DNA of 51,450 nucleotides from an uncultured virus (IMG/VR IMGVR_UViG_2061766007_000510) (taxonomy: Duplodnaviria > Heunggongvirae > Uroviricota > Caudoviricetes). Under the pieces are notes generated by a model. That model ran no database searches and was not told where the DNA came from. It worked only from the letters and a program-made list of their open reading frames with translations. Numbering within the stretch: position 1 is the first letter of the stretch; each line of letters starts with the position of its first letter. Where the stretch lies: IMG/VR virus record IMGVR_UViG_2061766007_000510, one strand, 5' to 3'. Positions 30,271 through 51,096 of the stretch are shown piece by piece. The position numbers were made by a program, and so were the translations under genes.

Positions 30271-30642
30271 CTATTCCTCCTCGGTGCCCCTATCCGCTAC
30301 CGGGGCGCTCCGGCTTGCCCCCCGTCCGTACCCGGTGGATGCACGGCGCCTAATCTCCAGCGCCCTGCGGACCTCCCAGAGAACCTCGCGGGTGACCTTG
30401 TTGTAGAGGAAGTGCCCGTGCACGCCCTTCCCGTCAAGGGAGAGAGCCCTGGGCTGGATGCCGTCGTCCGTGCGGAGGACGAGGGTCATCCTGGGTACGA
30501 CTGAAGAGCCGACTGGAAGGCCGGCCCGTGCCAGGAGAGTATCCCTCTCCCTGTCGCTGTCGAAAGACATCTCCACGACCACCGTGGCCTTGCCCTCGAT
30601 GCGTCGCAGCGGTGTCACTGAATAAATGCTCTTGAACTTCAT
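30271..30642 (-). CDS. hypothetical protein (frame reads through repeat copy 1)
   Basis: MKFKSIYSV...; AAGGAGG RBS after repeat copy 2. Confidence 0.65.
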   Translation of the reverse strand: MKFKSIYSVTPLRRIEGKATVVVEMSFDSDRERDTLLARAGLPVGSSVVPRMTLVLRTDDGIQPRALSLDGKGVHGHFLYNKVTREVLWEVRRALEIRRRASTGYGRGASRSAPVADRGTEEE

Positions 30643-31027
30643 GGTGTCCTCCTTGTTGGTACAACACCAGTATCCGCCACCGGGAAGCTCCGGCTTGCCC
30701 CCCGTCCCCACCCGGTGGGNNNNNNNNNNNNNNNNNNNNTCGTTGAAGTCCACGATGGACTTCTTGGCGAACCATTCCTTGCCCTTGTGGGCCTCGACCT
30801 CGGCCTCGGTGTACTGCATGGACCAGTCCGTGCCGAACCTTGCCATGAAGATTCCCCTGGCCTCCTCGTAGGCCTTCGGGCATTCCGAGGGATAGGGGAC
30901 GGTCACGCGCACGTAGGTGTCGCGGTTCGGGCTGTCGAAGCCGAAGGTGAAGTANNNNNNNNNNNNNNNNNNNNNNTGCTTGATAGTTCCTTGAATTTAT
31001 CGTTTCGAGAAGAAAAAATGTAAAGCG

Positions 31028-31371
31028 CTATTTCGATGCCATGCGGGAGACGGTCTCCATAATCTCGGCATGGGTGAACTTGCAGCGTTCGCGCAGGCTC
31101 GGCTTGCCGATNNNNNNNNNNNNNNNNNNCTCCCGGACAGGTCGAACTCGAACTCCCACCTCGATTTCCCGCCGGTGGCGGCCACGTGGACCGCCAGGCC
31201 CTGCGGACCGCCGAAGGTGAGGTTGCTGCTGTAGGAAATCTCTTTGTACTCCTCCGGCGGCAGCGCTCCCAGCATGCAACTGGATACCATCAGGCGGAGG
31301 TCGGCCAGTACGACGTTCACGGACTTGACTGCCTTCTCAATGTCCCTGCCGTAGTTAATCTTTGCGCTCAT
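31028..31371 (-). CDS. hypothetical protein (gap-interrupted)
   Basis: MSAKINYG...; AAGGAG RBS. Confidence 0.6.
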
Positions 31372-31394
31372 ATATGTCTCCTTGAAGAAAAAAA

Positions 31395-31742
31395 TTATTG
31401 GTCGGTCACGTCGACCATCCCGGAAAGCAGCCGGGTCAGGACGAGGGAGTACCGGGAGTGTTCCGAGCTGCTCGGGTCGCACCCGTTGCATGCGTCCGTG
31501 TAGAACTTGATGGCGGCCTCCCTGGTGGACCAGTGGATGCTCTCTCCCCCGCAGGTCACGTCGACCCCGTGGCACGCCTCCATCAGTATGTCGGGAGTAC
31601 CGGCGGGTACCGGGGTATGCAGTCCCATACGGGCCAGCAGGGTCTCGCCGGACAGTCTCTCGACATGCCGGGTAAGCTCGTCCGGGTTCACGTCATCGTC
31701 GAGGACTACCGGAATTCTTATAGTGAGATTAAATTTCCTCAT
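31395..31742 (-). CDS. hypothetical protein
   Basis: MRKFNLTIRIP...; TGATG coupling; AIKFYTDAC..C..SSSEHSRY. Confidence 0.7.
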   Translation of the reverse strand: MRKFNLTIRIPVVLDDDVNPDELTRHVERLSGETLLARMGLHTPVPAGTPDILMEACHGVDVTCGGESIHWSTREAAIKFYTDACNGCDPSSSEHSRYSLVLTRLLSGMVDVTDQ

Positions 31743-31918
31743 CAGTTCCTCCCCGCCGCGCGCATACGCAGCATGGTCGCAGTGTTCTCCACTGGCTCCC
31801 CCCATTCCCAGCACTCGGCAACGAGCCCGTGGTTGTCCTCCACTATGCCATGGGCGTCGAGGAACCCGGCGTTGGTGAGCGCCTCCTTCACGAGCATGGT
31901 GTATTCGTCCAATGTCAT
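31742..31918 (-). CDS. small hypothetical protein
   Basis: MTLDEYTML...; ATGA coupling. Confidence 0.6.
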   Translation of the reverse strand: MTLDEYTMLVKEALTNAGFLDAHGIVEDNHGLVAECWEWGEPVENTATMLRMRAAGRN

Positions 31919-32244
31919 GCCACGCCCCCGAAACATGCGGTTTCAGCTTCCTCGGCGGAAAGCACGAACACCTGGTCGCTCTCCGGGTTACGGAAGTAGA
32001 CGGTGCCGTCCTGGCACACGTGTTCCACCTCGCAGGTCTCCCCGTCGCAGCATACCGGCCCGTCGAAATTCTTTTCGCACCCGTCCGCATAAAGGTCGAA
32101 CCAGTCGCTGCCGGAGTCCTCCGTATGCACCAGGAGGTCGCCGCAGCGGGTCCTCCTCCCGTTCACGTTCTCGCGGAGAATGTCCCACAGGGTCGACAGC
32201 GACACGCAGACCTTCTCGCCTTCAGTAAATTTTGCCTTGCTCAT
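31915..32244 (-). CDS. Cys/acidic hypothetical protein, paralog of 42859-43188
   Basis: Both share VNGRRTRCGDLLVHTED and DGPVCCDGETCEVE. Confidence 0.8.
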   Translation of the reverse strand: MSKAKFTEGEKVCVSLSTLWDILRENVNGRRTRCGDLLVHTEDSGSDWFDLYADGCEKNFDGPVCCDGETCEVEHVCQDGTVYFRNPESDQVFVLSAEEAETACFGGVA

Positions 32245-32366
32245 GATGAAGTCTCCTTGATTTCCTTGTGCCTAACCTATCCGCCACCGGGGCGTCCCGG
32301 CTTGCCCCCCGTCCCTACCCGGTGNNNNNNNNNNNNNNNNNNNNNNNNNNNNNNNNNNNNNNNNNN

Positions 32367-32747: not shown

Positions 32748-32749
32748 TG

Positions 32750-33229: not shown

Positions 33230-33320
33230 GGTTAAGTCTCCTTGGTTTCCTTGTACCTCACCTATCCGCCACCGGGGCGTCCCGGCTTGCCCCCCGTCCG
33301 TACCCGGTGGCTACCGGGAG

Positions 33321-33512: not shown

Positions 33513-33596
33513 GGTTAAGTCTCCTTGGTTTCCTTGTACCTCGCCTATCCGCCACCGGGGCGTACCGGCTTTCCCCCCGTCTCTACCCGGTGGGCG

Positions 33597-35090: not shown

Positions 35091-35181
35091 GTTCCAGTCT
35101 CCTGTTTTTAAAAAATTTTTCCCGCACTCCGCCTATCCGCCACCGGTACTCCCCGGCTTGCCCCCCGTCCATACCCGGTGG

Positions 35182-35520: not shown

Positions 35521-35645
35521 TATAATGTCTCCTATAAAAAAGTTTTCCAATCCACCTATCCGCCACCCGTACTCCCCGGCTTGCCCCCCGTCCGCTCCCG
35601 GTGGAATACACCGGGAAATCCCCCGGGAGGCTACCGGGAGGTCCC

Positions 35646-36010: not shown

Positions 36011-36314
36011 GTCTCCTATTTAAAAGTTTTTTTCCTTGTACTTCTCCTATCAGCCACCGGTGCATCCCGGCTTTCCCCCCGTCCCCACCCGGTGGGTTCC
36101 ACCCGGAACCTACACGCTAGACCCGATGCCCGTACTCCCCGTAGAAGCCCCCGTGCAGTACCCCCCCTGCCCATCCGTGCAGGGTACACCGAATGTCCCC
36201 CCTACGGGGATATGCCGGGCCGATGGTGGGAACTACTGGGAGATACTGGGAGGATGTGGGGGAATACCGGGAGAAGGAGGGGTCAAACCCGTGTTCAACG
36301 AGACGAGAATTGCC

Positions 36315-36710
36315 CTTTTTGAGCGAATTTAAGCATTTGGAAAATTAAAATTTACAATACCTCCCGGAGACCCCCCGGAGACCCCCCGGAGCCTCCCGGT
36401 AGCAACCTGGGTGCAGACGAGGTGCATACTAGGTGCAGACCCGGAGCCGGAGGCCACCCCGGAGCCTACCGGGAGTCACCGGGAGCAACCTGGGAGCCAC
36501 CGGGAGATACATATCCGCCACCGGGGGCCACCGGCATGCCCCCCGTCCTCACCCGGTGGATGGAGGGCGGCTCCACGGGGACAGACCGGGATGCGCCATC
36601 CCCCTGGAGACCTCCCGGTGGCATCCGGGTGGCTACCGGGAGCGACCTGGGGGCGACCTAGGGGCTACCGGGAGGAACCTAGGGGCTACCGGGAGATACC
36701 GGGAGGGGCA
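36315..36710. repeat. non-coding tract of ~10-11-bp-periodic CCGG(G)AG units beside an AT-rich stretch
   Basis: CCGGAGACCCC repeated, then many (CT/CC)ACCGGGAG units; AT-rich 36315-36358. Confidence 0.7.
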
Positions 36711-37296: not shown

Positions 37297-37389
37297 TGGT
37301 TGACTCCTTTTGTAGTTGATTGTTTCAAGTTCGGTTTACATATACGCTACCGGGGCGTCCCGGCTTGCCCCCCGTCCGTACCCGGTGGG

Positions 37390-38322: not shown

Positions 38323-38462
38323 CTGTTGGCTCCTATGAAAATTAAGATTTACAATATTGGGAAATCTCCCGGAAGCATCCGGTGCATACCGTATACGCCA
38401 CCGGGGCATGCCGGCTTGCCCCCCGTCCTCACCCGGTGGGTACGGCGGGGGCAACCGGGAGG

Positions 38463-38804: not shown

Positions 38805-38936
38805 TGCGGTCTCCTTTGTCTGGTGCATGTATACGCCACCGGGGCATGCCGGCTTGCCCCCCGTCCTCACCCGGTGGATGGCGCGGGAGCTCCCGGGAGG
38901 TACCAGGGGACTCTCGGGGGATTTGCCGGGGATACG

Positions 38937-38970
38937 AAAAGGGGCCCCCCGGCAGAAACCGGGAGGCCCC
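38937..38970 (-). terminator. intrinsic terminator
   Basis: GGGGCCTCCCGG-TTTCTG-CCGGGGGGCCCC-TTTT on the - strand. Confidence 0.7.
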
Positions 38971-40087: not shown

Positions 40088-40384
40088 CTATCCTCTACCG
40101 GTGCATCCCGGCTTGCCCCCCGTCCTTACCCGGTGGGTGCCCAAGTCGAGCGCGTCGAGGATTGCCAGTATCTGCTGGTGGGTGTCCTCGGAGTAGACTC
40201 GGTAGGAGATGTACTCGCCAATGCGGATAACCGCCTGGACGTAGAGTTCATCCTCGGTGGTGAGCCCGTCGATGCCATGTAGGGCCTCGAGGGCGAGTTT
40301 GGCCATCTCCACGTCGGGGCACTTGATGAGTGCCGAGATGGATGTCGTGGTCTGCCTGTCGAGTTTTGTAATCTTGTACTTCAT
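40088..40384 (-). CDS. hypothetical protein (reads through a repeat)
   Basis: 98 aa; AGGAGG RBS. Confidence 0.65.
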   Translation of the reverse strand: MKYKITKLDRQTTTSISALIKCPDVEMAKLALEALHGIDGLTTEDELYVQAVIRIGEYISYRVYSEDTHQQILAILDALDLGTHRVRTGGKPGCTGRG

Positions 40385-41312: not shown

Positions 41313-41391
41313 GTTGTCTCCTTTGTTGTCATGCCTATACGCCACCGGGGCGCACCGGCTTGCCCCCCGTCCGTACCCGGTGGATGCTATA

Positions 41392-41571: not shown

Positions 41572-41586
41572 GATGTCTCCTGTGGG

Positions 41587-41754
41587 TTAATCGTCTTCTT
41601 CGTCTTCTTCGTCGTCTTCTACCGGTTCATCCTGGTCGTATACGGAGTCGTAACCGCACTCGGGGCATTCCCAGCCTTCGACCAGCTGGTGTTCGATGTG
41701 CGGGTCGTCGGTAATCATCCGGCGGAGTTTCGTATCGCAGTGTGGACATCTCAT
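41587..41754 (-). CDS. 55-aa zinc-ribbon protein with acidic tail (below ORF-track cutoff)
   Basis: MRCPHCD...WECPECGY...EDDEEDEEDD; AAGGAGG RBS after repeat. Confidence 0.7.
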   Translation of the reverse strand: MRCPHCDTKLRRMITDDPHIEHQLVEGWECPECGYDSVYDQDEPVEDDEEDEEDD

Positions 41755-41829
41755 AGGTTGCCTCCTTGTTGTAGTACACTTATCAGCTACCGGGGTGCAC
41801 CGGCTTGCCCCCCGTCCGTACCCGGTGGA

Positions 41830-42174
41830 TTAACCGGACTGTCTTGCCGCAAAGCGCTTTGCGACGAGTTCGGTCCATTCCTTCGTGTATATCCTCTTTG
41901 CTTCAAGGAAAGTAAGCAAGCGAGCCTTGCCATTGAACCAGTTGGTTGCCACCTTCTTTGCGCAGTCCTCCTTTGGTAGGCCGAGGGCTTCCGCCGTGAT
42001 AATGCCCAGTTCATAGTTCCGGAAGCAGAGGGTCTTGCCCTTGGTTTCCACCTCAATGAGGCTGCCCCACCCATCTTCCAGTTGGAAAGCCATTTCTTCC
42101 GCTTCCGCCTCGGTGGGAAAATCAACCTCGTAATGCCTGCTGAGGCACACGGGAGTAAATTCTTCATCTTCCAT
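41830..42174 (-). CDS. hypothetical protein
   Basis: MEDEEFTP...; AAGGAG RBS; stop 1 nt from a repeat. Confidence 0.7.
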   Translation of the reverse strand: MEDEEFTPVCLSRHYEVDFPTEAEAEEMAFQLEDGWGSLIEVETKGKTLCFRNYELGIITAEALGLPKEDCAKKVATNWFNGKARLLTFLEAKRIYTKEWTELVAKRFAARQSG

Positions 42175-42254
42175 GTCGGTCTCCTTGTTATATAATACGG
42201 GTATGCCCCCGGTAGTTTCCGGGAGCATCCACCGGCGGCACCCGGTGGGCCAGG

Positions 42255-42773
42255 TTAGTTCTGCCTCGCGAATGTACGGACCGCCTTGAACATGGCGACT
42301 ACGGCTTCCTTCTCGGCTACGGTGAGGCCGTTCCAAAATGCCTCCGCTTCGGTACCCTGTGTAAACGACGCGATGTCGTAGTCCTTCACGAACGGGTTGA
42401 TGAAGGTATCGAGAAGCATCTTCTCGGTCGGGTTCATGAAGGAGTATACCGCCGCGTTCTTCCCGAAATAGTCAGCCGTCCGTTTCTGGTAGGCACCCAC
42501 CTCGGGCATGCCCGGGATGGCATACTGGGTAGTGCAGTTGAACGACTTGCCGTCGGTTTCACGGGAAATCACGCAGTTTTCGCGTGCTTCCGCAGGCATG
42601 CCGTCGTATCCCGCGAGCTTGGGGTTGTAGTGAAGCACATACTTCACGCCGTTTACCGTGAACCAACATTCTATGTCCCCGTGCGAGCGAACGTGGCACT
42701 TGCGCACGGAGTCCGGGTTGGGCGGGAAAATCTTTGTAATCTTGATGACGGGTTTCTTGGTCTGCTTTGCCAT
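42255..42773 (-). CDS. hypothetical protein
   Basis: MAKQTKKP...; AAGGAG RBS after repeat. Confidence 0.75.
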   Translation of the reverse strand: MAKQTKKPVIKITKIFPPNPDSVRKCHVRSHGDIECWFTVNGVKYVLHYNPKLAGYDGMPAEARENCVISRETDGKSFNCTTQYAIPGMPEVGAYQKRTADYFGKNAAVYSFMNPTEKMLLDTFINPFVKDYDIASFTQGTEAEAFWNGLTVAEKEAVVAMFKAVRTFARQN

Positions 42774-42858
42774 TGTTGTGTCTCCTTTTGTTAAATTTTT
42801 TATCTGCCACCGGGGCGCACCGGAGTGCCCCCCGTCCTTACCCGGTGGGCTACCGGGT

Positions 42859-43188
42859 CTATGCCGCGAAACATGCGGTGGCTGCCTCGGTTGCCGACAG
42901 GACGAAGACCTGGTCGCTCTCGGAGTTGCGAAGGTAGACGGTACCGTCCTGGCAGACGTATTCCACCTCGCAGGTCTCCCCGTCGCAGCATACCGGGCCG
43001 TCGCAGTTCCGGTCGCTGCCGTCTGCATACAGGTCGAACCAGTCGCTGCCGGAGTCGTCCTCCGTATGCACCAGTAGGTCGCCGCATCTTGTACGGCGTC
43101 CGTTGACGCTTTCCTTGAGTATGTCCCACAGGATTGCCAGGGATACACCCACGCGTTCGCCTTCTGTAAAAAATTTTTTAGTTGCCAT
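42859..43188 (-). CDS. Cys/acidic hypothetical protein, paralog of 31915-32244
   Basis: 109 aa; single-ORF unit between two repeats. Confidence 0.8.
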   Translation of the reverse strand: MATKKFFTEGERVGVSLAILWDILKESVNGRRTRCGDLLVHTEDDSGSDWFDLYADGSDRNCDGPVCCDGETCEVEYVCQDGTVYLRNSESDQVFVLSATEAATACFAA

Positions 43189-43266
43189 GCTGCTGTCTCC
43201 TTTTGTTGATTTCTCTATACGCCACCGGGGGGCACCGGCGTGCCCCCCGTCCTTACCCGGTGGATG

Positions 43267-43539
43267 CTAGTAGAGTTCCAGGGTCTCGATGTGGAACACT
43301 TCGGTCCCTGCATCCCCGTCCTCGTTCCATGCGAGGGTAATCCAGGTTGCACCGGAGTTGACGGCCTCGGCCACCGCAGCTACGCTGGCAGGCTCCGGGG
43401 AGTCTCCGAAGGTAGCTCCGGGGTGGAGGCAGATGATGGTGGCGACCTCGTCGCAGAGGGCCTGGAGGACGTTGCCCTCCAGTTCATCGTCGGCGGCCAT
43501 GATTGAGTTTTCGTGAATAAGCAAAAATTTTTTATTCAT
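43267..43539 (-). CDS. small acidic protein
   Basis: 90 aa; stop 3 nt from a repeat. Confidence 0.7.
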   Translation of the reverse strand: MNKKFLLIHENSIMAADDELEGNVLQALCDEVATIICLHPGATFGDSPEPASVAAVAEAVNSGATWITLAWNEDGDAGTEVFHIETLELY

Positions 43540-43540
43540 A

Positions 43541-43747
43541 TCAGTCGTCCGTCGAGATGTTGATGGTTACAATGTCGGAGCCCTTCTTGATGCAGTCGAT
43601 GGAGCATACCTCGTGATAGAGGATGTTTGTGTCGGTGAGTTCGTCACCGGGGCCACGATAGATTTCCTTGCTCTGGTCGAGGTCGTAGATGGCAAATTGC
43701 TGCAATCCGGAGTCACAGAAGGTGTCGATGAGTTCTTCTACGGTCAT
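43541..43747 (-). CDS. small acidic protein
   Basis: 68 aa; AGGAGG RBS. Confidence 0.7.
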   Translation of the reverse strand: MTVEELIDTFCDSGLQQFAIYDLDQSKEIYRGPGDELTDTNILYHEVCSIDCIKKGSDIVTINISTDD

Positions 43748-43756
43748 GATGTCCTC

Positions 43757-44032
43757 CTACACTTCGATGGTGCTTGCGGTGATTTCCCACTTGACCCAGC
43801 CGTCCCAGCGGTCGTCCGGGGACTCGATGCCCTGGCGCTTGGCGATGCTCTTCCACTCGTCCTTCGGGAGGGCGGTCTCTTCCGCGTCGTTCTGTTCGGC
43901 CATGGTGTTGTAGTCCTTGACGATGAACTTCGCAGCCTTCTCGATGGTCGGGAAAGCCTTGGCGAAGGTGATGAGTTCGCCGGAGTTTTCGTAGAACTGC
44001 GCGGTGTGTACGATGTAGATTTTCTTCTTCAT
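43757..44032 (-). CDS. hypothetical protein
   Basis: 91 aa after repeat and RBS. Confidence 0.7.
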   Translation of the reverse strand: MKKKIYIVHTAQFYENSGELITFAKAFPTIEKAAKFIVKDYNTMAEQNDAEETALPKDEWKSIAKRQGIESPDDRWDGWVKWEITASTIEV

Positions 44033-44165
44033 GGTGTGTCTCCTTGTTGATGTTTGTTGATTACCGTATCAGCCACCGGGGCATCCCGGCTTGCCCCCCG
44101 TCCTTACCCGGTGGATTACCCGTGGTAGCCCCCGATACGTCCCGGCCTGCGTTCGTCCCTTGCCA

Positions 44166-44342
44166 TTACTGTACCTCCTCTACGGAGTTGGTTTCCACCC
44201 ATGCGAGGTCGAGGTCTTCCTTTGCCTCGTCGTCGTACAGTTCGTAGCCGCCGTAGATTTCCTCGGCTTCCTCCGGGGAACTGGCCCATACGAACGCCTC
44301 CGAGCGGAAAGTAATTCTGTAGCGTTTCTTTTCCATTGGCAT
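44166..44342 (-). CDS. small very acidic protein
   Basis: MPMEKKRYRITF...ASSPEEAEEI. Confidence 0.7.
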   Translation of the reverse strand: MPMEKKRYRITFRSEAFVWASSPEEAEEIYGGYELYDDEAKEDLDLAWVETNSVEEVQ

Positions 44343-44435
44343 AGTTGTGTCTCCTTGTTGATGTTTGTTGATTATCGTATCAGCCACCGGTGCATCCCGG
44401 CGTGCCCCCCGTCCGTACCCGGTGGATTGCCGGGG

Positions 44436-44762
44436 TCAGCCCTCGGCTTCCACGGTGACGATGAAGGCGTTTCCTTCGTGGTCGCACAGTTGCCATTCGC
44501 CGAGGAACTCGTCCTCCACGTCGGTATGCGATACCTCGGAGTAGGTGCCGTCCGCGTTGCGCTTGAACAGCACGGCCTCCGTCCAGCAGGGCTCCTCGTC
44601 ACCGCAACCGACGATTTTCACGTCCACCAGGTACAGGTCGTCGAGGAACGACGCGGTTTCCGCTTCCGAGGCCATGTCGTCCATGAGTCCGGGTTCGGAA
44701 AGCGCACGCTTGATGAAGTCGGCGCGTTCCTTGGAAATTTTTATTGTCTTGTAGTAGTCCAT
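44436..44762 (-). CDS. acidic hypothetical protein
   Basis: MDYYKTIKIS...WTEAVLF; GGAGG RBS. Confidence 0.7.
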   Translation of the reverse strand: MDYYKTIKISKERADFIKRALSEPGLMDDMASEAETASFLDDLYLVDVKIVGCGDEEPCWTEAVLFKRNADGTYSEVSHTDVEDEFLGEWQLCDHEGNAFIVTVEAEG

Positions 44763-44773
44763 AGTTGCCTCCC

Positions 44774-45007
44774 TTATTTGGCCTTCTCGATGTCGATGGA
44801 ATATCCACATCCCTCGTCGATGTAGAAACTCATGTCCTTGTTGCTGTCGAGTTCAAAGCACCAGTCCTGTACTGCGTACTTGTCAATGGTGTCGTTGTCG
44901 TACAGTTCGATGCAGATTTCGCGTACCTTGTCGTTGCGTGCCTTGAAAGCCTCGTTAATTGTGCGGTGGGTAGATACGATGTTTCCGTCTACTTTGAGAT
45001 TGTACAT
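44774..45007 (-). CDS. hypothetical protein
   Basis: 77 aa after repeat and AGGAGG. Confidence 0.7.
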   Translation of the reverse strand: MYNLKVDGNIVSTHRTINEAFKARNDKVREICIELYDNDTIDKYAVQDWCFELDSNKDMSFYIDEGCGYSIDIEKAK

Positions 45008-45080
45008 GTTGCCTCCTGGTTGCAGAAAAAATATCCGAGACCGGGGTGCACCGGCGTGCCCCCCGTCCGTGCCCGGTGGG

Positions 45081-45518
45081 CTACCAGCGTACCCCGTTGT
45101 AGTGGAAGCCGTCGTCGTCGGTGTGGATGTTGTGGACGATGGTCGCCTGCTTCATGCGTGCCACCTGCCCGTCGTAGATGGCCCTGGTCTCCTCCTTGGA
45201 GAGGGCGCGGGCGTCCCGCTGTTCCTCGGTTCCGAGGAACTTGGGGTCGCGGTCTGGCGCGGATGAGGTGAGCGGGCGCGGGTAGTTGTACTCGCGCTCG
45301 AAGCGTCCCCAGTCCATGAGGTCGTTGTAGCAGTAGAGGCAGTTCACCATACGCATCGCGCGCAGTGCGGCAATCCTATGGGTCTCCTGCGGGGTCTGGA
45401 GGTAGAAGTAGGGGTAGTCTGCATCCGGGTTGCGGGCCAGGACAGCAGCGTCGATGTCCTCTATTTCCTTTTCGATTTCCGGGTCGGACAGACCCACCTT
45501 TCCGAGTTCAAGTGCCAT
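45081..45518 (-). CDS. hypothetical protein
   Basis: 145 aa single-ORF unit; stop 1 nt from a repeat. Confidence 0.75.
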   Translation of the reverse strand: MALELGKVGLSDPEIEKEIEDIDAAVLARNPDADYPYFYLQTPQETHRIAALRAMRMVNCLYCYNDLMDWGRFEREYNYPRPLTSSAPDRDPKFLGTEEQRDARALSKEETRAIYDGQVARMKQATIVHNIHTDDDGFHYNGVRW

Positions 45519-45775
45519 GATGTTATCTCCTTTGTCTGGTGGATGTATCTGCTACCGGGGCATCCCGGCATGCCCCCCGTCCTCACCCGGTGGATAGCGG
45601 CATGTCGCCCGCCAGGCGACGCCGGTACCTCCTGCTGTCAGCCAGTTGAGAAACATAAGTAGCCCCCCGGGATATTCCGGGAGGCTACTGGGAGAGGCTT
45701 TGCCCACACAAGATTATCCTTGTGCATTTTTCGCTACAGAATGAACGGGGGTTAGCCTTGGAGACAACAAAGTTA

Positions 45776-46933
45776 TTAGAGTTTCCTACCGCACTCGGGG
45801 CAGAACTTCCACTCGGCGCAGCCGGCATAGAGGCCGGAGTCGTAGACGTTGACCTCGCAGGTACGTCCGTCGCGCTGGAAGTGGAGGGTTTCCGAGCCGA
45901 AGGTTACCTCCTTGCCGGAGCAGAGGGGGCATTCCGGTTCCTTACCGGAGGCTTCCGGGGGAACGATGTACTCATTGAGGTTCTTCTCGAGCTCTTCGTA
46001 GGTGTAGCCACCCCCGGTGAGCCCCGGAGAGGAAAAGGAAAATTCTTTGCCCTTGCATCGGATGGTCAGCGGGCATTCCTGGTAGGTACCATTCCATTCA
46101 ATCGTGCCGTCCGCTTTGAGGTTGACGGACTTCTCGGTAAATTCCGGGAGCCTGTCCTTGTACTTTCGCTCGATGAAGTAGTGAAATGTAAAATAAAAAT
46201 TTACAATTTCCTGGCGGGCATTGTACGGGTCCTTGATTGCGAGCTCGTCGGACTCGTCTTCTTTCGGCCAGATGAACATGAAATGTTCCCATTCCTTGTC
46301 GGTGCAGCGCCACATGGTCTTGAAGCGGCAGACGAACATGGTTCCGCCGAGTACGAACGGGATGTCCACGTTGATTGCCTGACCCCCGTCATGGAATGAC
46401 GATACACAGAGAGGGTCGAACTTGGCATCGGGGAGGCAGCGGTTGAACGCGGTAATCGCCAGTTGCTCCCGGTAGGCTACCGGGGTGAGACTGTCGAAGA
46501 GTTCCTTCACCGGGTCGTCCGCCTCGGGGTCGTTGGTATATACCACTTCGACGTTCCTGCGGTCGTACCCGTTCTTCTCGAGGAGGTTGAGGAGGTGCAG
46601 GGCGATTGTCTGTTCGTCCGGGGAGGGCATTTCGGCGGTACCGGAGAGTACGTTGGCGAGCGCCACGATGGTGTTGGCGGACTTGGAGTAGGCGACGTAG
46701 GCGCTCATGCCGGTGTCGGGGTTGACGACTACGCTGTTGCTGCGCCTGGACTTGTACCATTCGATAGGCGCGTCGAAGCGGTCCGCGTATTCCTCGGAGG
46801 GCATGGCGAAGGCCAGGTCTCCGTACTGGGCGGGAACCAGGTCGAGGTTTTCGAGGTATTCCACCACCCCGCAGATGTCCGGGTGGTTCTTGATTGCGAC
46901 GATGGAAAGGGTGAGTTTGCCAGTGTTCTTCAT
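45776..46933 (-). CDS. hypothetical protein with C-terminal zinc ribbon
   Basis: 385 aa; CPLC...FCPECGRKL. Confidence 0.75.
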   Translation of the reverse strand: MKNTGKLTLSIVAIKNHPDICGVVEYLENLDLVPAQYGDLAFAMPSEEYADRFDAPIEWYKSRRSNSVVVNPDTGMSAYVAYSKSANTIVALANVLSGTAEMPSPDEQTIALHLLNLLEKNGYDRRNVEVVYTNDPEADDPVKELFDSLTPVAYREQLAITAFNRCLPDAKFDPLCVSSFHDGGQAINVDIPFVLGGTMFVCRFKTMWRCTDKEWEHFMFIWPKEDESDELAIKDPYNARQEIVNFYFTFHYFIERKYKDRLPEFTEKSVNLKADGTIEWNGTYQECPLTIRCKGKEFSFSSPGLTGGGYTYEELEKNLNEYIVPPEASGKEPECPLCSGKEVTFGSETLHFQRDGRTCEVNVYDSGLYAGCAEWKFCPECGRKL

Positions 46934-47060
46934 GTTGTCTCCTTTGCTGCTTAACGTATCTGCTACCGGGGCATCCCGGCTTGCCCCCCGTCCTTACCCG
47001 GTGGGTAAAGTGGAGCCTCCCGGCAGGTACCGGGAGGCCACTGGAGGCAACAAAAAATTA

Positions 47061-47083
47061 GGCTATGTCCACCCAAAGTGTTG
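47061..47083 (+). repeat. orphan copy of the IS1595-like element end
   Basis: GGCTATGTCCACCCAAAGTGTTG, identical to the reverse complement of 5405-5427. Confidence 0.8.
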
Positions 47084-47085
47084 AA

Positions 47086-47340
47086 TTAACCTCTTATTTC
47101 AACGATTTTCAACGCGAGGATTTCGCCGGAGGAGGTTTCATACCGGTAACCTTCGGAGCAGTCCTCCGGTAAAACTGGTTCGTCCTCATCATCGCATACG
47201 GCTATCGTTTCGTTGACGATGGTGCTGACCTCTTTCGCGGCCTTTTCGCGGCTGGTGAAAACGTCCGGCACCTCTACAATTTCGGTACCGTCAGAGAACT
47301 GATGGTAGCCGCTGATGATGAATTTGCTCTTGCAGGCCAT
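47086..47340 (-). CDS. acidic hypothetical protein
   Basis: MACKSKFII...; GGAGG RBS. Confidence 0.7.
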   Translation of the reverse strand: MACKSKFIISGYHQFSDGTEIVEVPDVFTSREKAAKEVSTIVNETIAVCDDEDEPVLPEDCSEGYRYETSSGEILALKIVEIRG

Positions 47341-47359
47341 AGGGTCCTCCATTTAAAAA

Positions 47360-48046
47360 TTATTCGTTGGATATTGCGTACTGGTACTTTTCCAGAACGC
47401 AGTTTTCTATGTGTTCGCGGAGCTGGCGGGTAATCGGGAAGAACTGGGTACGCAGGTCTTCCTCCTTGGCGTTGACTACCGGGTAGGCCACGAACAGCCC
47501 GTTCACGCCGTCCACGATGCGGAGGTCGCGGAGAATAAGCTGGTCGTTCAGCACGACAGATGCGAGACCGACCGTGTGCTTGGCGTTCGGCTTGATGAAG
47601 GGGAACACCTGAACCTGGGTGACGGCCAGGCAGTCGAAGGCGTCGGTCTTCTCGGTTTCTACCGGTTGCTGCCGGGAGGCGCCGGTGAGCTTGTAGAGGA
47701 GGTCTTTCATTTCTCCCTTCATGTACTCCTTGTCCTCGATGAGCTCCTTGAGGTCGGGAGCGCCGTTCTTGCCGTGTCCCTCGGAGTCCACCCAGGGCAT
47801 GGCCTCGGCTACGGGGTCGTAGGAGTCGATGTAGTCCTGGAGCTCGCCGGCGATTTCCTTGACGGTGGGCTTCCCGGAGATTACGAGGGAGGCGATGAAG
47901 TCTTCGCCTGCTGGCGAGGCTGTCTCGAACTCGACGACGGTTTCTGCGCGGTCTCCATTCTGGCTGACGCTCGCGCTCCATTCGGAGTCCTTGATGATTT
48001 CCTCCAGTTTCTCTTGGGTCTTTTCGTAGTAAGATTTACGTGCCAT
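47360..48046 (-). CDS. SpoVG-domain fusion protein
   Basis: C-terminal VTQVQVFP...LASVVLNDQLILRDLRIVDGVNGLFVAYP...FPITRQLREHIENCVLEKY; extra ~125-aa acidic N-terminal domain. Confidence 0.85.
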   Translation of the reverse strand: MARKSYYEKTQEKLEEIIKDSEWSASVSQNGDRAETVVEFETASPAGEDFIASLVISGKPTVKEIAGELQDYIDSYDPVAEAMPWVDSEGHGKNGAPDLKELIEDKEYMKGEMKDLLYKLTGASRQQPVETEKTDAFDCLAVTQVQVFPFIKPNAKHTVGLASVVLNDQLILRDLRIVDGVNGLFVAYPVVNAKEEDLRTQFFPITRQLREHIENCVLEKYQYAISNE

Positions 48047-48119
48047 GTTGTTGTCTCCTGTTGATTACCGTATCTGCCACCGGGGCATCCCGGCTTGCCC
48101 CCCGTCCGTACCCGGTGGG

Positions 48120-48473
48120 CTAGAAGTCCTTACCCCGGCGCGGCTGGTAGACGTTCAGCTTCTTGACCTCGACCGGGTAGCCCTTGCCGTCCATGTCGTT
48201 GTGCCAGTCGGTGCGGTACTGGTCGAGCAGGTACTTGACGTGTTCCGGGTCGCACCGGTCAGTCCCCGGGCGGGAGTGGGCATAGTAGTCGTAGCCGGAC
48301 TCGTTGTAGTAGTGGCTGTCGCCCGTATCGGTGCAGATGCACTCAATCCAGCTCTTCCGGCATACCTTGGAGCAGCTCCAGAAAAAAATAATCGGGAACC
48401 AGCAGCGTTGGTACGGGTTGTATTCCTGCCGGAGAACAAAGGCGTTCTCCCAGTTCTTTACTTGTCTAGCCAT
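48120..48473 (-). CDS. hypothetical protein
   Basis: MARQVKNW...; single-ORF unit. Confidence 0.7.
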   Translation of the reverse strand: MARQVKNWENAFVLRQEYNPYQRCWFPIIFFWSCSKVCRKSWIECICTDTGDSHYYNESGYDYYAHSRPGTDRCDPEHVKYLLDQYRTDWHNDMDGKGYPVEVKKLNVYQPRRGKDF

Positions 48474-48545
48474 ATCAGCCTCCTTGTTGTTCACTATATA
48501 CGCCACCGGGGAGCACCGGCGTGCCCCCCGTCCGTACCCGGTGGA

Positions 48546-49028
48546 CTACTTGGCAATCTCCGGGAGGTCCTTGGTGATTTTGACTCCGAACATTTCGGCC
48601 TTCTTCTTGAACTCCTCCCAGAACGGCTTGAGGCGTTCGACGGGCGTGGACTTGATGGTAGTCCCGTCATCGTTCACGTCGAACCATGCGTCTATGCACT
48701 CGTCCTTGTCGTCGCTGAAGATTTCCGCCTCGGTAATGGTGCCGTACCCTTCTCCGTAGCGGTCGATGTCGCCGTCGTCCTGGCCTACTCGGATAAGGTA
48801 GTAGTCTTCTTCGTCGGCATTGTCGAGCACGTCCATGACGGCATCAACATCCGGGTAGTGTCCCCGGCAGTATTCATCCCACTTCGTATAGGCCTCGAAG
48901 TAGTAGGTCTGCCCACTGGGGGAAACCTTGAGTTCTTCGAACGGCGACCCGTTTTCCTTGATTGCCTTGAAAATTTTCTTTGCCACATTCTTCTTTGCGA
49001 GAAGCCTGACTGTGCTGTAATATCCCAT
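48546..49028 (-). CDS. acidic hypothetical protein
   Basis: MGYYSTV...KW...Y...IRVGQDDGDI; single-ORF unit. Confidence 0.75.
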   Translation of the reverse strand: MGYYSTVRLLAKKNVAKKIFKAIKENGSPFEELKVSPSGQTYYFEAYTKWDEYCRGHYPDVDAVMDVLDNADEEDYYLIRVGQDDGDIDRYGEGYGTITEAEIFSDDKDECIDAWFDVNDDGTTIKSTPVERLKPFWEEFKKKAEMFGVKITKDLPEIAK

Positions 49029-49100
49029 GTTTGCCTCCTTGGTAAAAAAATTATCCGATACCGGGGAACCCCGGCGTGCCCCCCGTCCGTACCCGGTGGA

Positions 49101-49616
49101 CTACTTGGCCGCCTGGATGGCGTCCAGGAAGACCGAGTGGTTGTGTGACTGGTGTGTGAGGTCGTCGATGAAGTCGGAGTCCACCAGGGTGTAGTATTCG
49201 TGGTCCCAGTTGTCCACGCCGAAGTGTTCGAAGTCCACGTCCGCGTATCGGTCCACGTCGATGATGCCGGAGCCGTTGCACTCGCAGCAGGTCTCCTCTA
49301 CGGTGACCGTCTCGCCATCCTCGTCCTCTTCCTCGTACTGGAGGTAGCCGGACCCGTCGCAGTCCGGGCAGGACTTCGAGAGGGAGATGCCGTCTACTCC
49401 CTTGACGATGAACTGGGCCGCCTCGGTTGCCTTCCGGCCCGCCTCGGTATCTCCCAGTTCATGCTTGAGTGCGTTCGCCCAGTCGTCCACGGAACCGTAT
49501 GCTTCGATGAGGTCGTCAATGTAGCCGTTGAAGCACGCTTGTGCCATGCCCCCGTTGCAAATCTGGTAGTGGAGCTGCCCGAGCCATTCGACTGCGGTAA
49601 ATTCTTTTGTTGCCAT
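49101..49616 (-). CDS. DMP19/DUF4375-like acidic protein with inserted CxxCxGxG zinc finger
   Basis: YQICNGGMAQACFNG resembles the DUF4375 EVxNGGFxQxFxN motif; CPDCDGSG...CCECNGSG. Confidence 0.6.
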   Translation of the reverse strand: MATKEFTAVEWLGQLHYQICNGGMAQACFNGYIDDLIEAYGSVDDWANALKHELGDTEAGRKATEAAQFIVKGVDGISLSKSCPDCDGSGYLQYEEEDEDGETVTVEETCCECNGSGIIDVDRYADVDFEHFGVDNWDHEYYTLVDSDFIDDLTHQSHNHSVFLDAIQAAK

Positions 49617-49692
49617 AGTAGCCTCCTTGTTGTATAAAAAATATCTGCCACCGGGGCGCACCGGCGTGCCCCCCGTCCTTGCCCGGTGGATG

Positions 49693-49866
49693 CTACCGGG
49701 ACTTCTCCTTCAGTTCCAGTCCGTCCTCCAGTCTGGTGTTCATCCAGTGTCTGAGGGAACGGGCGCAGTCCCGGCAGATTACGCGGGTGTCAGCGCCGAA
49801 AGAAAATTTTGGCCCCGGGTCGCCCTTCAGCGGCAGCCTGCAAACTTGACATTCAGTAATCGGCAT
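49693..49866 (-). CDS. 57-aa CxxC...CxxC protein (below ORF-track cutoff)
   Basis: MPITECQVC...VICRDCAR; AAGGAG RBS; stop 3 nt from a repeat. Confidence 0.6.
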   Translation of the reverse strand: MPITECQVCRLPLKGDPGPKFSFGADTRVICRDCARSLRHWMNTRLEDGLELKEKSR

Positions 49867-49939
49867 GGTTTTCTCCTTGTAGTAAACGGTGGCCTCCCGG
49901 GATGTACCCGGGAGGCTTTGGTTGGCTGCTATGGAAAGG

Positions 49940-50320
49940 TTAGTCCCATTCCTCGTGGTAGAGCTTGCGGAGCTCGCCGAGGGTATTCTTGAAGGGTTCG
50001 ACGGAGCTGTCGCGCTCGATGTACAGCCCGTAGGGGAGCTTGATGTCCATCAGTTCCTTGAGGCTGATGTCGCCGAGCTCGAGGCCGTAGCCCAGGGTTG
50101 CGGCTCCGAACACAATCATGTTCTCGTCGATGTGGTCGGCGTCCTTCGGTTCGCCGTCCTTGAAGAACATGGAGTCTTCGAGCACGTACCATGTGCCACT
50201 GCCCATCGGGTTGAAGAAGCGGGCGATTACGCGCTTGTCGTCCTTCGGGGTTCCGTCGGTGGAGCCGTAGGGGGTCTTGGCGAGTGCGTCGATGATTGCC
50301 TTGGTTATTCTTTTCTGCAT
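49940..50320 (-). CDS. DUF2958-like protein
   Basis: RFFNPMGSGTWYVLE...FG...LGYGLELGDISLKEL...IERD. Confidence 0.8.
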   Translation of the reverse strand: MQKRITKAIIDALAKTPYGSTDGTPKDDKRVIARFFNPMGSGTWYVLEDSMFFKDGEPKDADHIDENMIVFGAATLGYGLELGDISLKELMDIKLPYGLYIERDSSVEPFKNTLGELRKLYHEEWD

Positions 50321-50515
50321 ATTGTTGTCTCCTGTTGATTACCGTATCTGCTACCGGGGCGCACCGGCTTGCCCCCCGTCCTCACCCGGTGGATGTACCC
50401 GGTTCCGACTGGCAGGTCCCGGGGACAGCGCATCGAGGCGCAGGAAGGCATTTTATACAAAAAATCCCCCGGGATAGCCCTGGAGATTTCTGGAGGTCGT
50501 CGAAATTAGCGAAAT

Positions 50516-50956
50516 TTAGCCAAAACGCGAGTGACGCTGGTCAGTGTCGATGTTTCCATACTTCTCCTGGAAGGCCTTGGCCTTGTCAGTCATCTTCCTG
50601 GGAAGCCAGACATCGCTCTCGTCGAGTTCCCAGTACCATTCATCGGTGTCCAAATCGTCATAGCAATCGCCGTCCCCGTCGAGGTAGACATAGGAAATGG
50701 ACATCCCGGTCTTTTCCTCGAAGGCGTTGCGAAGGGCCTCATAGGCCTTGTCGAGGGCTTTATATTCTTCGTCCTCGTCATCGACATCCCAGAAGTCGCC
50801 TTCGTTGAGGGCGTCGTGGACTGCGCTTTCATTGCGGTCTTCGATGAAGGTCTTGTGTTTGTTCATAAAGTTGTCGTACAGGTTCTTGCCGACGACCTTC
50901 TTGACAATATCGTCCGCCACAATCTGGTGGAAGCTCTCGATGTTTCCCATTGACAT
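50516..50956 (-). CDS. acidic hypothetical protein
   Basis: 146 aa, D/E-rich; after repeat and AAGGAG. Confidence 0.75.
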   Translation of the reverse strand: MSMGNIESFHQIVADDIVKKVVGKNLYDNFMNKHKTFIEDRNESAVHDALNEGDFWDVDDEDEEYKALDKAYEALRNAFEEKTGMSISYVYLDGDGDCYDDLDTDEWYWELDESDVWLPRKMTDKAKAFQEKYGNIDTDQRHSRFG

Positions 50957-51096
50957 AGTTGTCTCCTTGTTGAGGTTTTCTAATTTATATATCAGCTACC
51001 GGGGCTTCCCGGCTTGCCCCCCGTCCGTACCCGGTGGACAGCGTCGCCTCCCGGCGTCCCCGGCCGGGACCTGACAGTGCAGCTTCAGAGTCCTGA

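Follow-up and report, generated by a model that had tools for sequence, protein, structure and literature searches.

The window analysed here, a 51,450-base stretch of viral DNA, carries an array of small genes punctuated by a 48-bp repeat, and the question is whether this element is a recombination site, a phage-specific promoter, or both, as an earlier note had proposed. The whole window was scanned with the 43-nt core pattern given in that note, allowing up to 3 mismatches. This yielded 28 matches, all on the minus strand between 30296 and 51037, with no match elsewhere in the window and none in 100 dinucleotide-preserving shuffles of it. There were no mismatches to the core in 19 copies, 1 in 7 and 2 in 2, and in one of the single-mismatch copies the mismatch is an N from a masked run. 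Eight masked N-runs lie within 30.2-36.9 kb, and further copies could be hidden there. The full 48-bp copies span 30291-51037 and align without indels, confirming the number, common orientation and fixed length described before. They are located as follows:

Copy 1: 50990..51037, minus strand, ATG 33 nt downstream, 146-codon ORF; intrinsic terminator 51103-51133, 66 nt upstream
Copy 2: 50345..50392, minus strand, ATG 24 nt downstream; 126 codons, DUF2958
Copy 3: 49642..49689, minus strand, upstream stop at 3 nt; ATG 25 nt downstream, 171 codons
Copy 4: 49052..49099, minus strand, upstream stop at 1 nt; ATG 23 nt downstream
Copy 5: 48497..48544, minus strand, upstream stop at 1 nt; ATG 23 nt downstream
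Copy 6: 48071..48118, minus strand, upstream stop at 1 nt; SpoVG-domain gene behind
Copy 7: 46957..47004, minus strand, ATG 23 nt downstream, 385 codons
Copy 8: 45546..45593, minus strand, terminator 45658-45689, 65 nt upstream
Copy 9: 45032..45079, minus strand, upstream stop at 1 nt; two-gene unit
Copy 10: 44378..44425, minus strand, core-pattern match
Copy 11: 44067..44114, minus strand, three-gene unit
Copy 12: 43216..43263, minus strand, upstream stop at 3 nt
Copy 13: 42801..42848, minus strand, core-pattern match
Copy 14: 41781..41828, minus strand, upstream stop at 1 nt
Copy 15: 41336..41383, minus strand, pentapeptide-repeat gene behind
Copy 16: 40089..40136, minus strand, upstream ORF runs through the copy and stops in GGATAG just downstream
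Copy 17: 38830..38877, minus strand, terminator 38941-38970, 64 nt upstream
Copy 18: 38392..38439, minus strand, longest leader, ATG 69 nt downstream
Copy 19: 37341..37388, minus strand, upstream stop at 1 nt
Copy 20: 36512..36559, minus strand, orphan without a gene behind, in a repeat-rich non-coding stretch
Copy 21: 36048..36095, minus strand, core-pattern match
Copy 22: 35557..35604, minus strand, core-pattern match
Copy 23: 35134..35181, minus strand, upstream stop at 0 nt
Copy 24: 33546..33593, minus strand, TAG 3 nt upstream
Copy 25: 33263..33310, minus strand, core-pattern match
Copy 26: 32278..32325, minus strand, first base masked (N)
Copy 27: 30671..30718, minus strand, core-pattern match
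Copy 28: 30291..30338, minus strand, last copy; heads a conserved operon

Positions 46-48 of the element read ATA in all 28 copies, preceded at position 45 by a G in 22 and a T in 6. Positions 2-8, 13-21, 23, 26-29, 36 and 38-40 are likewise invariant, and variation is found at positions 9-11, 24, 30-35, 41 and 44-45. The near-terminal inverted repeat, CCACCGG/CCGGTGG, is real, but its pairing is broken in some copies without compensation. Pair 2-41 is complementary in 18 of the 28 copies and pair 8-35 in 23, and no compensating changes occur among them because the 5' arm never varies. A search of Rfam with the element gave no match, and neither the GTTRRRY core nor other attC features were found. 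The closest known system is the PeSL cassettes of T4-type phages, discussed below.

Behind 27 of the 28 copies there is an AGGAG sequence and an ATG that opens an ORF of at least 43 codons. This ATG lies 23-44 nt, and once 69 nt, from element position 48, exactly as noted before. The exception, the copy at 36512-36559, precedes a gene-free run of phased short repeats, ~450 nt long:

36100..36700, minus strand, non-coding stretch on both sides of the orphan copy, with CCCGG-type repeats phased at 10-11 bp

By crude gene calls, the units behind the element hold 1 to ~3-4 ORFs, close to the 1-4 previously claimed. Pfam names were obtained for only 6 of the 30 ORFs submitted (DUF2958, DnaJ-type zinc finger, SpoVG, zinc ribbon, and pentapeptide repeats with DUF5758). 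In 10 copies, an upstream ORF at least 79 codons long ends with its stop codon 0-3 nt before the element. The earlier note also listed 10 such copies, nine of which are shared, but 41336-41383 replaces 33546-33593. This adjacency is explained more simply by a promoter that is packed tightly behind the previous gene.

The window comes from the genome of an uncultured, T4-like jumbo phage found in metagenomes of the bovine gut, and scans of its relatives detected versions of the element in three records (21, 36, and 43 copies). Each relative has its own diverged, GC-rich version of ~50 nt, on one strand and in one block per record. All 21 copies of G001 are on the plus strand. In G002 (260 kb, 91% complete) 36 copies with E<1e-3, all minus, were found at 222.9-259.5 kb, together with 7 weaker profile matches in the same stretch, and in G003 (222 kb) 43 copies with E<1e-3, all plus, at 97.1-124.0 kb; outside this block no match was better than E=0.03. 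The elements of the window and G001 differ in their middle and 3' parts. Across four lineages the sequences differ, but the layout is common, with a 5' box, a G-run, and an ATA 45-46 nt after the box; unlike this spacing, no hairpin is common to the lineages. Several lineages carry C/T-ATA, CCATA or ACATA at the place of the ATA. The 3' box is either of an ATA or a CGTA type, and this split matches the sigma tree, as it does everything else, there being two clades only.

G002 contains genes for T4-like portal, head, sheath and baseplate proteins, UvsX and a gp55-like protein. No RNA polymerase of the phage's own was detected, and the phage type encodes sigma factors, one complete and one minimal (gp55-like). 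The T4-like genes and the lack of a polymerase fit the 'group 2' jumbo phages, which, according to Iyer et al. 2021 (PMC7824862), recruit the host polymerase with their own sigmas. The array block ends at a conserved module:

29613..30182, minus strand, conserved first gene after the array, orthologues of which begin with a signal-peptide-like segment
28319..29581, minus strand, FtsK/SpoIIIE-like ATPase without the gamma (KOPS-reading) domain
27684..28277, minus strand, RadC-like JAB-domain protein
27566..27683, minus strand, AT-rich intergenic region directly upstream of the sigma gene that contains a -10-like box of the TATATTT type
26795..27565, minus strand, sigma-70-family sigma factor, candidate reader of the 48-bp element

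The best family matches of this sigma factor are SigK, SigE and SigI, all of which score far under the curated cut-offs. Even loci in which the sigma match drops to 25-32% identity retain the order array, FtsK, sigma. In window-like lineages the sigma gene is located downstream of the array, and in 4 distant loci an element lies directly before it. Locus L064 has both the AT-rich TATATTT region and an element before the sigma gene, and one related sigma gene has a TTGACA close upstream of an AT-rich -10-like box.

Based on these data, we consider it rather likely that the 48-bp element is a promoter of a phage-specific class, read by the host core polymerase with a phage sigma, and that its copies double as recombination joints. 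From its anatomy, its restriction to the array, the lineage versions with conserved spacing, and the cassette differences between relatives described below, we infer promoter activity, a start site, a reader and a recombination mechanism. The element would head every transcription unit of the large accessory-gene array and be read as double-stranded DNA over ~48 bp, with the 5' box (CCACCGGG), the G-run 12-21 nt in, and the ATA at 46-48 as a -10-like element. The predicted transcription start lies a few bases past the ATA, before the AT-rich leader and AGGAG. Since no phage polymerase is recognisable, the element is most likely read by the core RNA polymerase of the host together with a phage factor. 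The best candidate for this factor, and probably the right one, is the SigK/SigE-like sigma encoded where the array ends, perhaps aided by further contacts upstream. The -10 boxes of mother-cell sigmas begin with CATA (PMC3789822), and this, together with the C/T-ATA, CCATA or ACATA of several lineages, the SigK and SigE matches, the retained gene order and the elements before distant sigma genes, counts in favour of this sigma.

The position at the head of units, the co-orientation, the array restriction, the conserved spacing across lineages and the phage type support the proposed phage-specific expression signal. So do strong intrinsic terminators on the coding strand: three of them precede copies 1, 8 and 17 by 64-66 nt, and transcription must restart there. 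We also count in favour of a promoter that distinct promoter-like classes partition the genome, the 48-bp element in the array and TGCTATATTT outside. The latter occurs as 7 exact copies in the window, between 559 and 20763, and in the array only as a near-match with one mismatch on the non-coding strand, when ~1.0 is expected by chance. In G001 and G002, both TGCTATATTT and TATAAACT show enrichment in front of genes that lie outside the array. A -35 was found at 15-30% of the TGCTATATTT-class sites, versus ~10% of controls, in G001-G003, and at 1 of 8 in the window; with no -35 to define this class, its host type is not secure.

Several points count against the promoter reading. A search for RNA runs that contain the stretch found none. 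The conserved upstream boxes lie ~26-45 nt before the ATA, too distant for a normal -35, which is spaced at 16-18 bp, and no clear -35 is common to the lineages. The sigma factors of the window and G001 are 89% identical, yet their elements differ, so that specificity is not obviously set by the sigma; its gene could simply be one more member of the array, with a product that reads the TGCTATATTT class instead. The identity of copies within a genome could in part reflect gene conversion instead of a 48-bp recognition site.

It is unlikely that the element is an ordinary early promoter, in effect a true PeSL, which the unmodified host holoenzyme reads at the start of infection. Small accessory-gene arrays are early genes in T4-type phages (PMC2839356), and a sigma gene downstream of the array could be an early product of it, but the element contains no TTGACA or TATAAT-like boxes, and the TTGACA with AT-rich box at the related sigma gene shows what a host-type promoter of these phages looks like. 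A sigma-70 consensus scan of 36.9-51.4 kb found 1 site, on the wrong strand, versus 4.9 expected, and this scarcity of other promoters also favours the phage-specific reading. Moreover, the element differs strongly between sister lineages, whereas the canonical-looking TG-n-TATATT motif is identical letter for letter in four genomes.

The stop codons just before 10 copies, the inverted repeats, and the T- or A-run after four copies could also indicate an RNA-level element on long polycistronic transcripts, such as a site of processing, a 3'-end stabiliser of the upstream gene or an attenuator for it, or a leader structure of the downstream gene. Folding compared to shuffles gave z=-5.1 for L040 and -2.1 for a G003-lineage copy (L086), one copy each, and -2.05 for one of two G001-lineage copies, and the copies of L041, from a reading of the listing, keep a hairpin with different arm sequences. 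We nevertheless find this quite improbable, as the six window copies that were folded had z values of -0.5 to -1.2, not above shuffles in stability, and adopted structures unlike one another. Pairs 2-41 and 8-35 are broken without compensation in 10 and 5 of the 28 copies, lineages share box spacing and not hairpins, and the terminators before three copies and the negative Rfam search argue in the same direction.

The G/C tracts inside the element recur every ~10-11 bp, and tandem 10-11-bp arrays of this tract unit are present in non-coding DNA of both the window and relative L001, with similar repeats behind some G003-lineage copies. Together with the polarity of all copies and the FtsK-like gene adjoining in many lineages, this might suggest a phased array bound by a protein unrelated to initiation, serving to guide the FtsK-like motor, or in packaging, partition or silencing. 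This is very unlikely, since the gamma domain that reads polar sequences (PF09397) is absent from the window FtsK protein and none is listed for P0001-P0030, and since the tight coupling to gene starts and the invariant ATA would be left unexplained.

The arrays of related phages differ by gain, loss and reordering of cassettes. Examples are a clean one-cassette indel between two elements (L086 1125-1680 versus L033), a cassette swap with breakpoints inside elements (L040 versus L039), and a cassette that brought its own element to a new place (L033 5386-5814). In contigs of another strain, an element separates two genes that are direct neighbours in the window, and assembled contigs break at the repeat. 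Of the 17 rearrangement junctions in 4 close pairs, 9 were in or at an element, but 8 had no element contact, for instance where an additional gene splits a unit between two of its members; the suggested shuffling at the element thus holds for part of the junctions. A dedicated capture system was not supported: no tyrosine recombinase was found in the records of three relatives, of which one is 91% complete, or in PHROGs and Pfam searches with ORFs of the window, and the sole serine-recombinase-like gene of G002 lies beside a TnpB-type 'transposase', far from the array. Despite the cassette-like layout, a site-specific recombination site of an integron-like system, or a small self-inserting mobile element, is therefore the most improbable of the alternatives, also because G002 and G003 have no copies outside the array and the phage has UvsX, whose pathway needs only short homology (PMC2839356).

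PeSLs, promoter-early stem-loop cassettes, have been described in the T4-type phages RB49/phi1, T4/PST and KVP40/nt-1 (Arbiol et al. 2010, PMC2839356; Comeau et al. 2014, PMC4122927). Like the 48-bp element, they are repeated composite signals that follow a stop codon and precede the next Shine-Dalgarno and ATG, contain G/C-run stem-forming sequences, and head small, mostly unknown genes in a T4-like plastic region. In both cases relatives differ by cassette indels or replacements with junctions often in the repeats, and a dedicated recombinase is known for neither. PeSLs have an AT-rich upstream region and boxes that match the host sigma-70 consensus exactly; the 48-bp element fails these criteria, being GC-rich and lacking such boxes. 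Furthermore, PeSL stem-loops occur at variable positions and the cassettes are scattered over several plastic regions, whereas the element has a fixed length and forms one co-oriented block of 21-37 kb, varies between sister lineages, and has in the window a thermodynamically ordinary hairpin. Promoter, terminator and mini-circle activities have been measured for PeSLs; the element and its relatives are known from sequence alone.

Phage sigma-dependent promoter classes include those of SPO1 gp28 and gp33/34 and the T4 gp55 late promoters, and such promoters are short, with -35/-10 boxes or a -10 only. As in these systems, the genomes of the present phages are divided among several promoter-like motif classes, which are distinct and highly conserved. 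Like the 'group 2' jumbo phages (PMC7824862), the present phages have their own sigmas without their own polymerase. Conservation over 48 bp, with the best boxes 26-45 nt upstream of the ATA, is unlike known phage sigma promoters, and the sigma-site pairing is putative. Integron attC arrays likewise consist of co-oriented, small, unrelated genes with a repeated, partly palindromic site against the previous stop, but here there is no integrase and no attC core or bulged-hairpin architecture, the copies within one genome are near-identical, and instead of one common promoter a signal and ribosome site precede every unit.

The 48-bp element is thus one lineage's version of a signal class common to a clade of rumen jumbo phages. 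The repeats appear to double as homology patches: because the copies number dozens, are near-identical and all point the same way, homologous recombination by the phage itself would use them as joints, and cassettes of a promoter with its gene or genes would in this way be deleted, inserted and reordered, as described for PeSLs.

The earlier note had described the 48-bp element as 28 co-oriented, gapless copies, and a scan of the window with the core pattern (at most 3 mismatches) returned the same number: 28 matches, all on the minus strand within 30296-51037, compared to 0 in shuffled sequences. The window is masked by many N-runs, eight of which lie within 30.2-36.9 kb and may conceal copies, so that 28 is a minimum count. 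When the 28 copies were aligned, positions 2-8, 13-21, 23, 26-29, 36, 38-40 and 46-48 were invariant, the last three reading ATA in 28/28 copies, and variation was confined to positions 9-11, 24, 30-35, 41 and 44-45. The element is GC-rich across positions 1-43. Its reported placement relative to genes was found as well: AGGAG and then ATG follow in 27 of the 28 copies, 23-44 nt past position 48 (once 69 nt), and in 10 copies a stop codon lies 0-3 nt before the element. The Shine-Dalgarno sequence of the window copies is always at least about 10 nt away from the ATA, which leaves space for a transcription start between the two.

The copy at 36512-36559 has no gene downstream. It is surrounded by non-coding, 10-11-bp phased tandem repeats of the CCCGG/CCGGG type (36100-36700, minus strand) with an AT-rich core at about 36300-36370, and this stretch may act as a binding array, as an origin or as a regulatory hub. 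The relative L001 has a stretch of 10-bp tandem repeats at 3050-3950, and comparable repeats follow some copies in L086, a locus of the G003 lineage. Gene calls in the window, including the array, are crude. The following array cargo genes are candidates for host-takeover or anti-defence roles.

Cargo genes of the array (window coordinates)
40395-41312, pentapeptide-repeat protein with DUF5758; a repeat of 15-nt period lies at L001 233-702
47360-48046, SpoVG-domain fusion
49940-50320, DUF2958 protein

Exact-pattern scans with the window core found nothing in viral, genome and metagenome contig collections, because the element is too lineage-specific, and phage and plasmid collections yielded no megablast hit to the array. 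The relatives were found by means of the FtsK protein encoded next to the array, not by the element sequence. Scanning them showed that three related viral records (G001, G002 and G003) each have their own diverged version of the element, on a single strand and in a single block.

Element versions in three related viral records
G001, 696-17663, plus strand, 21 copies (regular expression), immediately before its FtsK gene
G002, 222.9-259.5 kb, minus strand, 36 copies at E<1e-3 (own-copy profile)
G003 (222 kb), 97.1-124.0 kb, plus strand, 43 copies at E<1e-3

All 43 hits up to E=10 in G002 fall within its 222.9-259.5 kb block, and outside the G003 array the best hit is no better than E=0.03, thus both ends of that array lie within the contig. 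Only these three viral contigs were scanned whole, the metagenome records of L024, L057, L040 and L041 not being among them. Other metagenome loci contain further element versions ahead of genes upstream of FtsK. The consensus sequences diverge strongly between lineages, the shared 5' box being CCACCGGG in the window and G001, CTAWCGGG in G003 and CA-CCGG in G002. Common to the lineages are a G-run about 13-21 nt in and an ATA 45-46 nt from the start of the 5' box, the latter replaced by a CATCGTA 3' end in a more distant group. Such constant spacing with free intervening sequence points to a single protein complex that would read double-stranded DNA. By these shared features, the window element is the form that one lineage carries of a signal present throughout the clade.

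The FtsK relatives are located on contigs of 116-474 kb, and the window stretch itself is present in bovine gut metagenome runs; for 41001-51000 no RNA run was listed. The 260-kb G002 record (91% complete by CheckV) encodes a portal, major head protein, prohead protease, tail sheath, baseplate wedge proteins and a sheath stabiliser, a gp55-like late sigma, and, for replication and recombination, UvsX, a family-B DNA polymerase, clamp loader, DnaB, primase, SbcCD and ligase, a gene set that identifies it as a T4-like jumbo myovirus. RNA polymerase domains (PF04997, PF00562) gave no match in G001-G003, and the positive controls matched; PF00940 gave no match either, but its control was silent too, so that this blank carries little weight. 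Large G002 ORFs compared with PHROGs and Pfam yielded no polymerase and stay nameless, and a 2703-aa ORF had no PDB sequence match. This negative search fits the 'group 2' jumbo phages that Iyer et al. describe as lacking a polymerase and carrying one minimal and one complete sigma (PMC7824862).

The non-array part of the window carries genes for an SPFH protein, DUF2201-type proteins, a CCA-adding enzyme, an AAA ATPase, a DUF932 protein and an SprT-like protein. At 4400-8000 the GC content falls to 37-45% (compared to ~55%) over minus-strand ORFs without family matches; the DUF2201-type genes flanking this island (2821-4374 and 9081-10688) both match one G001 gene, so that it resembles an insertion with gene duplication or splitting. 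At least nine ORFs of G002 (loci L011-L020) match the TnpB-type 'transposase' phrog_506; they are scattered, with none in the array, and one adjoins a serine-recombinase-like gene (L020:16609-17157). A distantly related 42-kb viral contig (L096, with L076) carries, at 2198-3204 and beyond, a CRISPR-like array in which a repeat of ~29 nt returns every 61-62 nt, ~29 times in all, between spacers that vary.

The position and orientation of the element relative to the ribosome-binding sites are consistent with a promoter. On the coding strand, three copies have a strong intrinsic terminator 64-66 nt upstream, hence transcription must restart there. No sigma-70-like promoter was found on the coding strand of the array (1 site, on the opposite strand, per 14.5 kb versus 4.9 in shuffles), and the invariant positions of the element contain neither TTGACA nor TATAAT. 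As in sigma-dependent phage promoters, the copies occupy a fixed place upstream of genes, are co-oriented, and occur in a phage that encodes a sigma. From its sequence context, the element reads as the promoter class of the array.

Genes outside the array have other motifs upstream. In both G001 and G002, TTTTGCTATATTTG and TATAAACT are overrepresented ahead of such genes, and TGCTATATTT occurs in 7 exact window copies within 559-20763, against ~1.0 expected by chance, and is absent from the array coding strand.

Motif copies in the window (exact for TGCTATATTT)
559-568, TGCTATATTT
2450-2459, TGCTATATTT
5835-5844, minus strand, TGCTATATTT
12697-12706, TGCTATATTT
15358-15367, TGCTATATTT
15711-15720, TGCTATATTT
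20754-20763, TGCTATATTT
12223-12230, TATAAACT
25676-25683, TATAAACT

The TTTTGCTATATTTG class is letter-identical across the four genomes, with 8, 23, 34 and 54 sites; it reads as a putative extended -10 (TG-n-TATATT) and would fit the Bacteroidota TAnnTTTG box as well. A -35 for the TGCTATATTT class is weakly enriched, with little signal. The two window copies of TATAAACT are not significant on their own; across the genomes of G001 and G002, its enrichment ahead of non-array genes is 15-27-fold. It resembles the T4 late TATAAATA and, by analogy, is likely the late-promoter box of the gp55-like sigma. The distinct motif classes of core and array thus split the genome into promoter-like classes, with the element as the class of the array.

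After the last element copy, and on the same strand, follow genes for a 189-aa protein, an FtsK/SpoIIIE-like ATPase, a RadC-like protein and a sigma-70-family sigma (26795-27565), and we infer that this phage sigma is the candidate reader of the element. The order array-FtsK-sigma is retained even where the sigma match drops to 25-32% identity, and in four loci (L038, L039, L040 and L041) the element directly precedes the sigma gene. The sigma gene of the window and nearer relatives is preceded by an AT-rich region of its own (29-46% GC versus 51-59% for the loci) holding a TATATTT-type box; L033 and L086 also have TTGACA close upstream of an AT-rich -10-like box at this place, and L064 has the AT-rich region and the element in tandem. 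The best NCBIfam matches of the sigma are SigK, SigE and SigI, all far under the cut-off, and close cellular relatives were absent among its hits, 11/11 being metagenomic. The 3' box in several lineages is C/T-ATA, CCATA or ACATA, and -10 boxes of mother-cell sigmas in Clostridioides difficile start with CATA (PMC3789822). There is, however, evidence against this sigma as the reader. The best-conserved boxes of the element are too far upstream to serve as a -35, and the window and G001 sigmas are 89% identical, yet their elements differ. The split between ATA and CGTA tracks the sigma tree, but this involves two clades only. Moreover, the TGCTATATTT class, with its little -35 signal, could itself belong to the phage sigma, and the weak -35 enrichment weakens the argument by elimination that the host sigma reads TGCTATATTT and the phage sigma therefore the element.

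Other readers were considered. The conserved 189-aa protein was dropped since its orthologues start with signal-peptide-like segments, and sigma54-type and ECF-type readings were dropped by eye, their defining boxes being absent at the right spacing. The FtsK/SpoIIIE-like motor (28319-29581) is kept next to a sigma gene throughout a deep clade of rumen phage contigs. Polar guide sequences of FtsK/SpoIIIE (KOPS/SRS) need a motif-reading gamma domain, whereas the FtsK of the window consists of alpha and motor domains and lacks membrane and gamma domains, and no gamma domain (PF09397) is listed for its 30 nearest relatives.

The inverted repeat claimed for the element is largely accounted for by two CCGG-containing boxes; the stem itself is mismatched without compensation (pair 2-41 in 10/28 copies and pair 8-35 in 5/28). 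Six window copies were not more stably folded than shuffles (z -0.5 to -1.2) and took up differing structures; a conserved RNA or single-strand fold finds no support in the window. Most window copies are without a U-run. Elsewhere, folding gave z=-5.1 for L040, -2.1 for a G003-lineage copy and -2.05 for one of two G001-lineage copies. Integron attC sites have R''/L'' and L'/R' arms and a GTTRRRY core, which the element lacks: as the earlier note had stated, none of the 28 aligned copies contains GTTRRRY, and the 5' arm is invariant. An IntI-type tyrosine recombinase, which integrons have nearby, was not found either in the records of the three relatives or among the scanned window ORFs. In line with the statement that the element matches no recognised family, a gathering-threshold scan of Rfam 15 gave 0 matches, and REP/MITE-like repeats are dispersed, with terminal repeats and target duplications, whereas the element copies occur in the array only and before genes only. 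The element is neither an integron, nor a described Rfam family, nor a dispersed REP/MITE. In the literature searched, supplements aside, we found no description of it or of the promoters of this clade.

The proposal that genes are captured and shuffled at the element was supported in part. The core is collinear with G001 and G002: by tblastn, 21 of the 25 gene calls of window 1-29.6 kb match G001 in collinear order, and many match G002 too. Array gene calls were matched for 19/38 in G001 and 7/38 in G002, and in the promoter-distal half the window and G001 have them in scrambled order. Numbered by window units, the G001 order is 5, 9b, 6, 1, 7, 8, (11b, 14b, 11c), 16, 3, 15, 18, 19..., with gene 14b between two genes of another unit and neither junction carrying an element. 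Between the two genomes, blocks of nucleotide homology often start ~55-76 nt past an element start, and 3 of 21 end 7-42 nt within the next element. Four closer pairs have 17 junctions, of which 9 touch an element (one event being counted in two pairs and one junction being a repeated-HSP artefact), and elements with a 10-nt margin make up 6-12% of the arrays. A 553-bp element-plus-gene cassette is present in L086 and missing from L033, with the homology overlapping in the element; L040 and L039 have a swapped cassette order with breakpoints 0-18 nt into elements; and one gene was lost right behind an element. Counter-cases are gene indels between AT-rich flanks and an insertion of 1.3 kb that lies between genes. 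A viable breakpoint has to be intergenic, and much of the intergenic space is taken up by elements, so the enrichment is suggestive only; the intergenic constraint alone would enrich too.

The search for a recombinase came back empty, with 0 matches to PF00589 in the records of the three relatives and none among the scanned window ORFs; UvsX is present in G002. T4-type recombination needs <50 bp of homology, according to the discussion in the PeSL paper (PMC2839356). In the likely source run, contigs end at the element and show joints between element positions, with sides of 20-47 nt, which are inseparable from assembly-graph effects and do not count here as evidence for recombination or circles. 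Contigs of public runs, in which at least three related strains are represented, showed strain differences: one run lacks a 300-bp gene, and two genes that neighbour each other in the window are separated by an element in the contigs.

The nearest known system is the promoter-early stem-loop cassettes (PeSLs) of T4-type phages (PMC2839356, PMC4122927). Like PeSLs, the element separates small accessory ORFs within a plastic region of a T4-like phage and leads from a stop codon to a Shine-Dalgarno sequence and ATG. PeSLs have -35/-10 boxes matching the host sigma-70 consensus and an AT-rich upstream region; the element has no such boxes and is GC-rich. PeSLs have a stable stem-loop acting as terminator or attenuator; predicted folding here is at shuffle level in the window copies and strong in the L040 lineage. 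Between close relatives, PeSL indels and replacements join within the repeats; here 9/17 junctions touch an element, an enrichment to which intergenic constraint would also lead. PeSL mini-circles arise by recombination between flanking copies; the material here is assembled contigs, which end at the repeat. The element further differs in its fixed length, its lineage specificity and its confinement to one block. In layout and setting it is the same as the PeSLs, and in evolutionary behaviour it appears to be; it would work like a PeSL but is not a member by these criteria.

A tentative wider reading, which we consider possible but rather doubtful, is an integrase-free 'promoter integron' of rumen jumbo phages, in which an unusually long (~48 bp), helically phased, GC-rich promoter and a phage sigma or other factor would co-diversify and the copies would serve as reshuffling joints. 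The phage's own recombination would then keep reshuffling a 21-37 kb host-takeover array at its promoter copies. If true, this would couple expression specificity and gene mobility within one element. Apart from this wider reading, the element extends the PeSL idea of promoters doubling as recombination joints to a probable promoter type that is non-host-like and differs between sister phages. Phage 'cassette arrays' need not imply integron-type machinery. If the pairing with the sigma holds, the lineages would offer a natural series of orthogonal sigma/promoter pairs. In a large clade of uncultured rumen jumbo phages, the element yields a testable transcription signal with a candidate reader, and it groups 21-37 kb of probable host-takeover genes per genome into a single co-regulated class.
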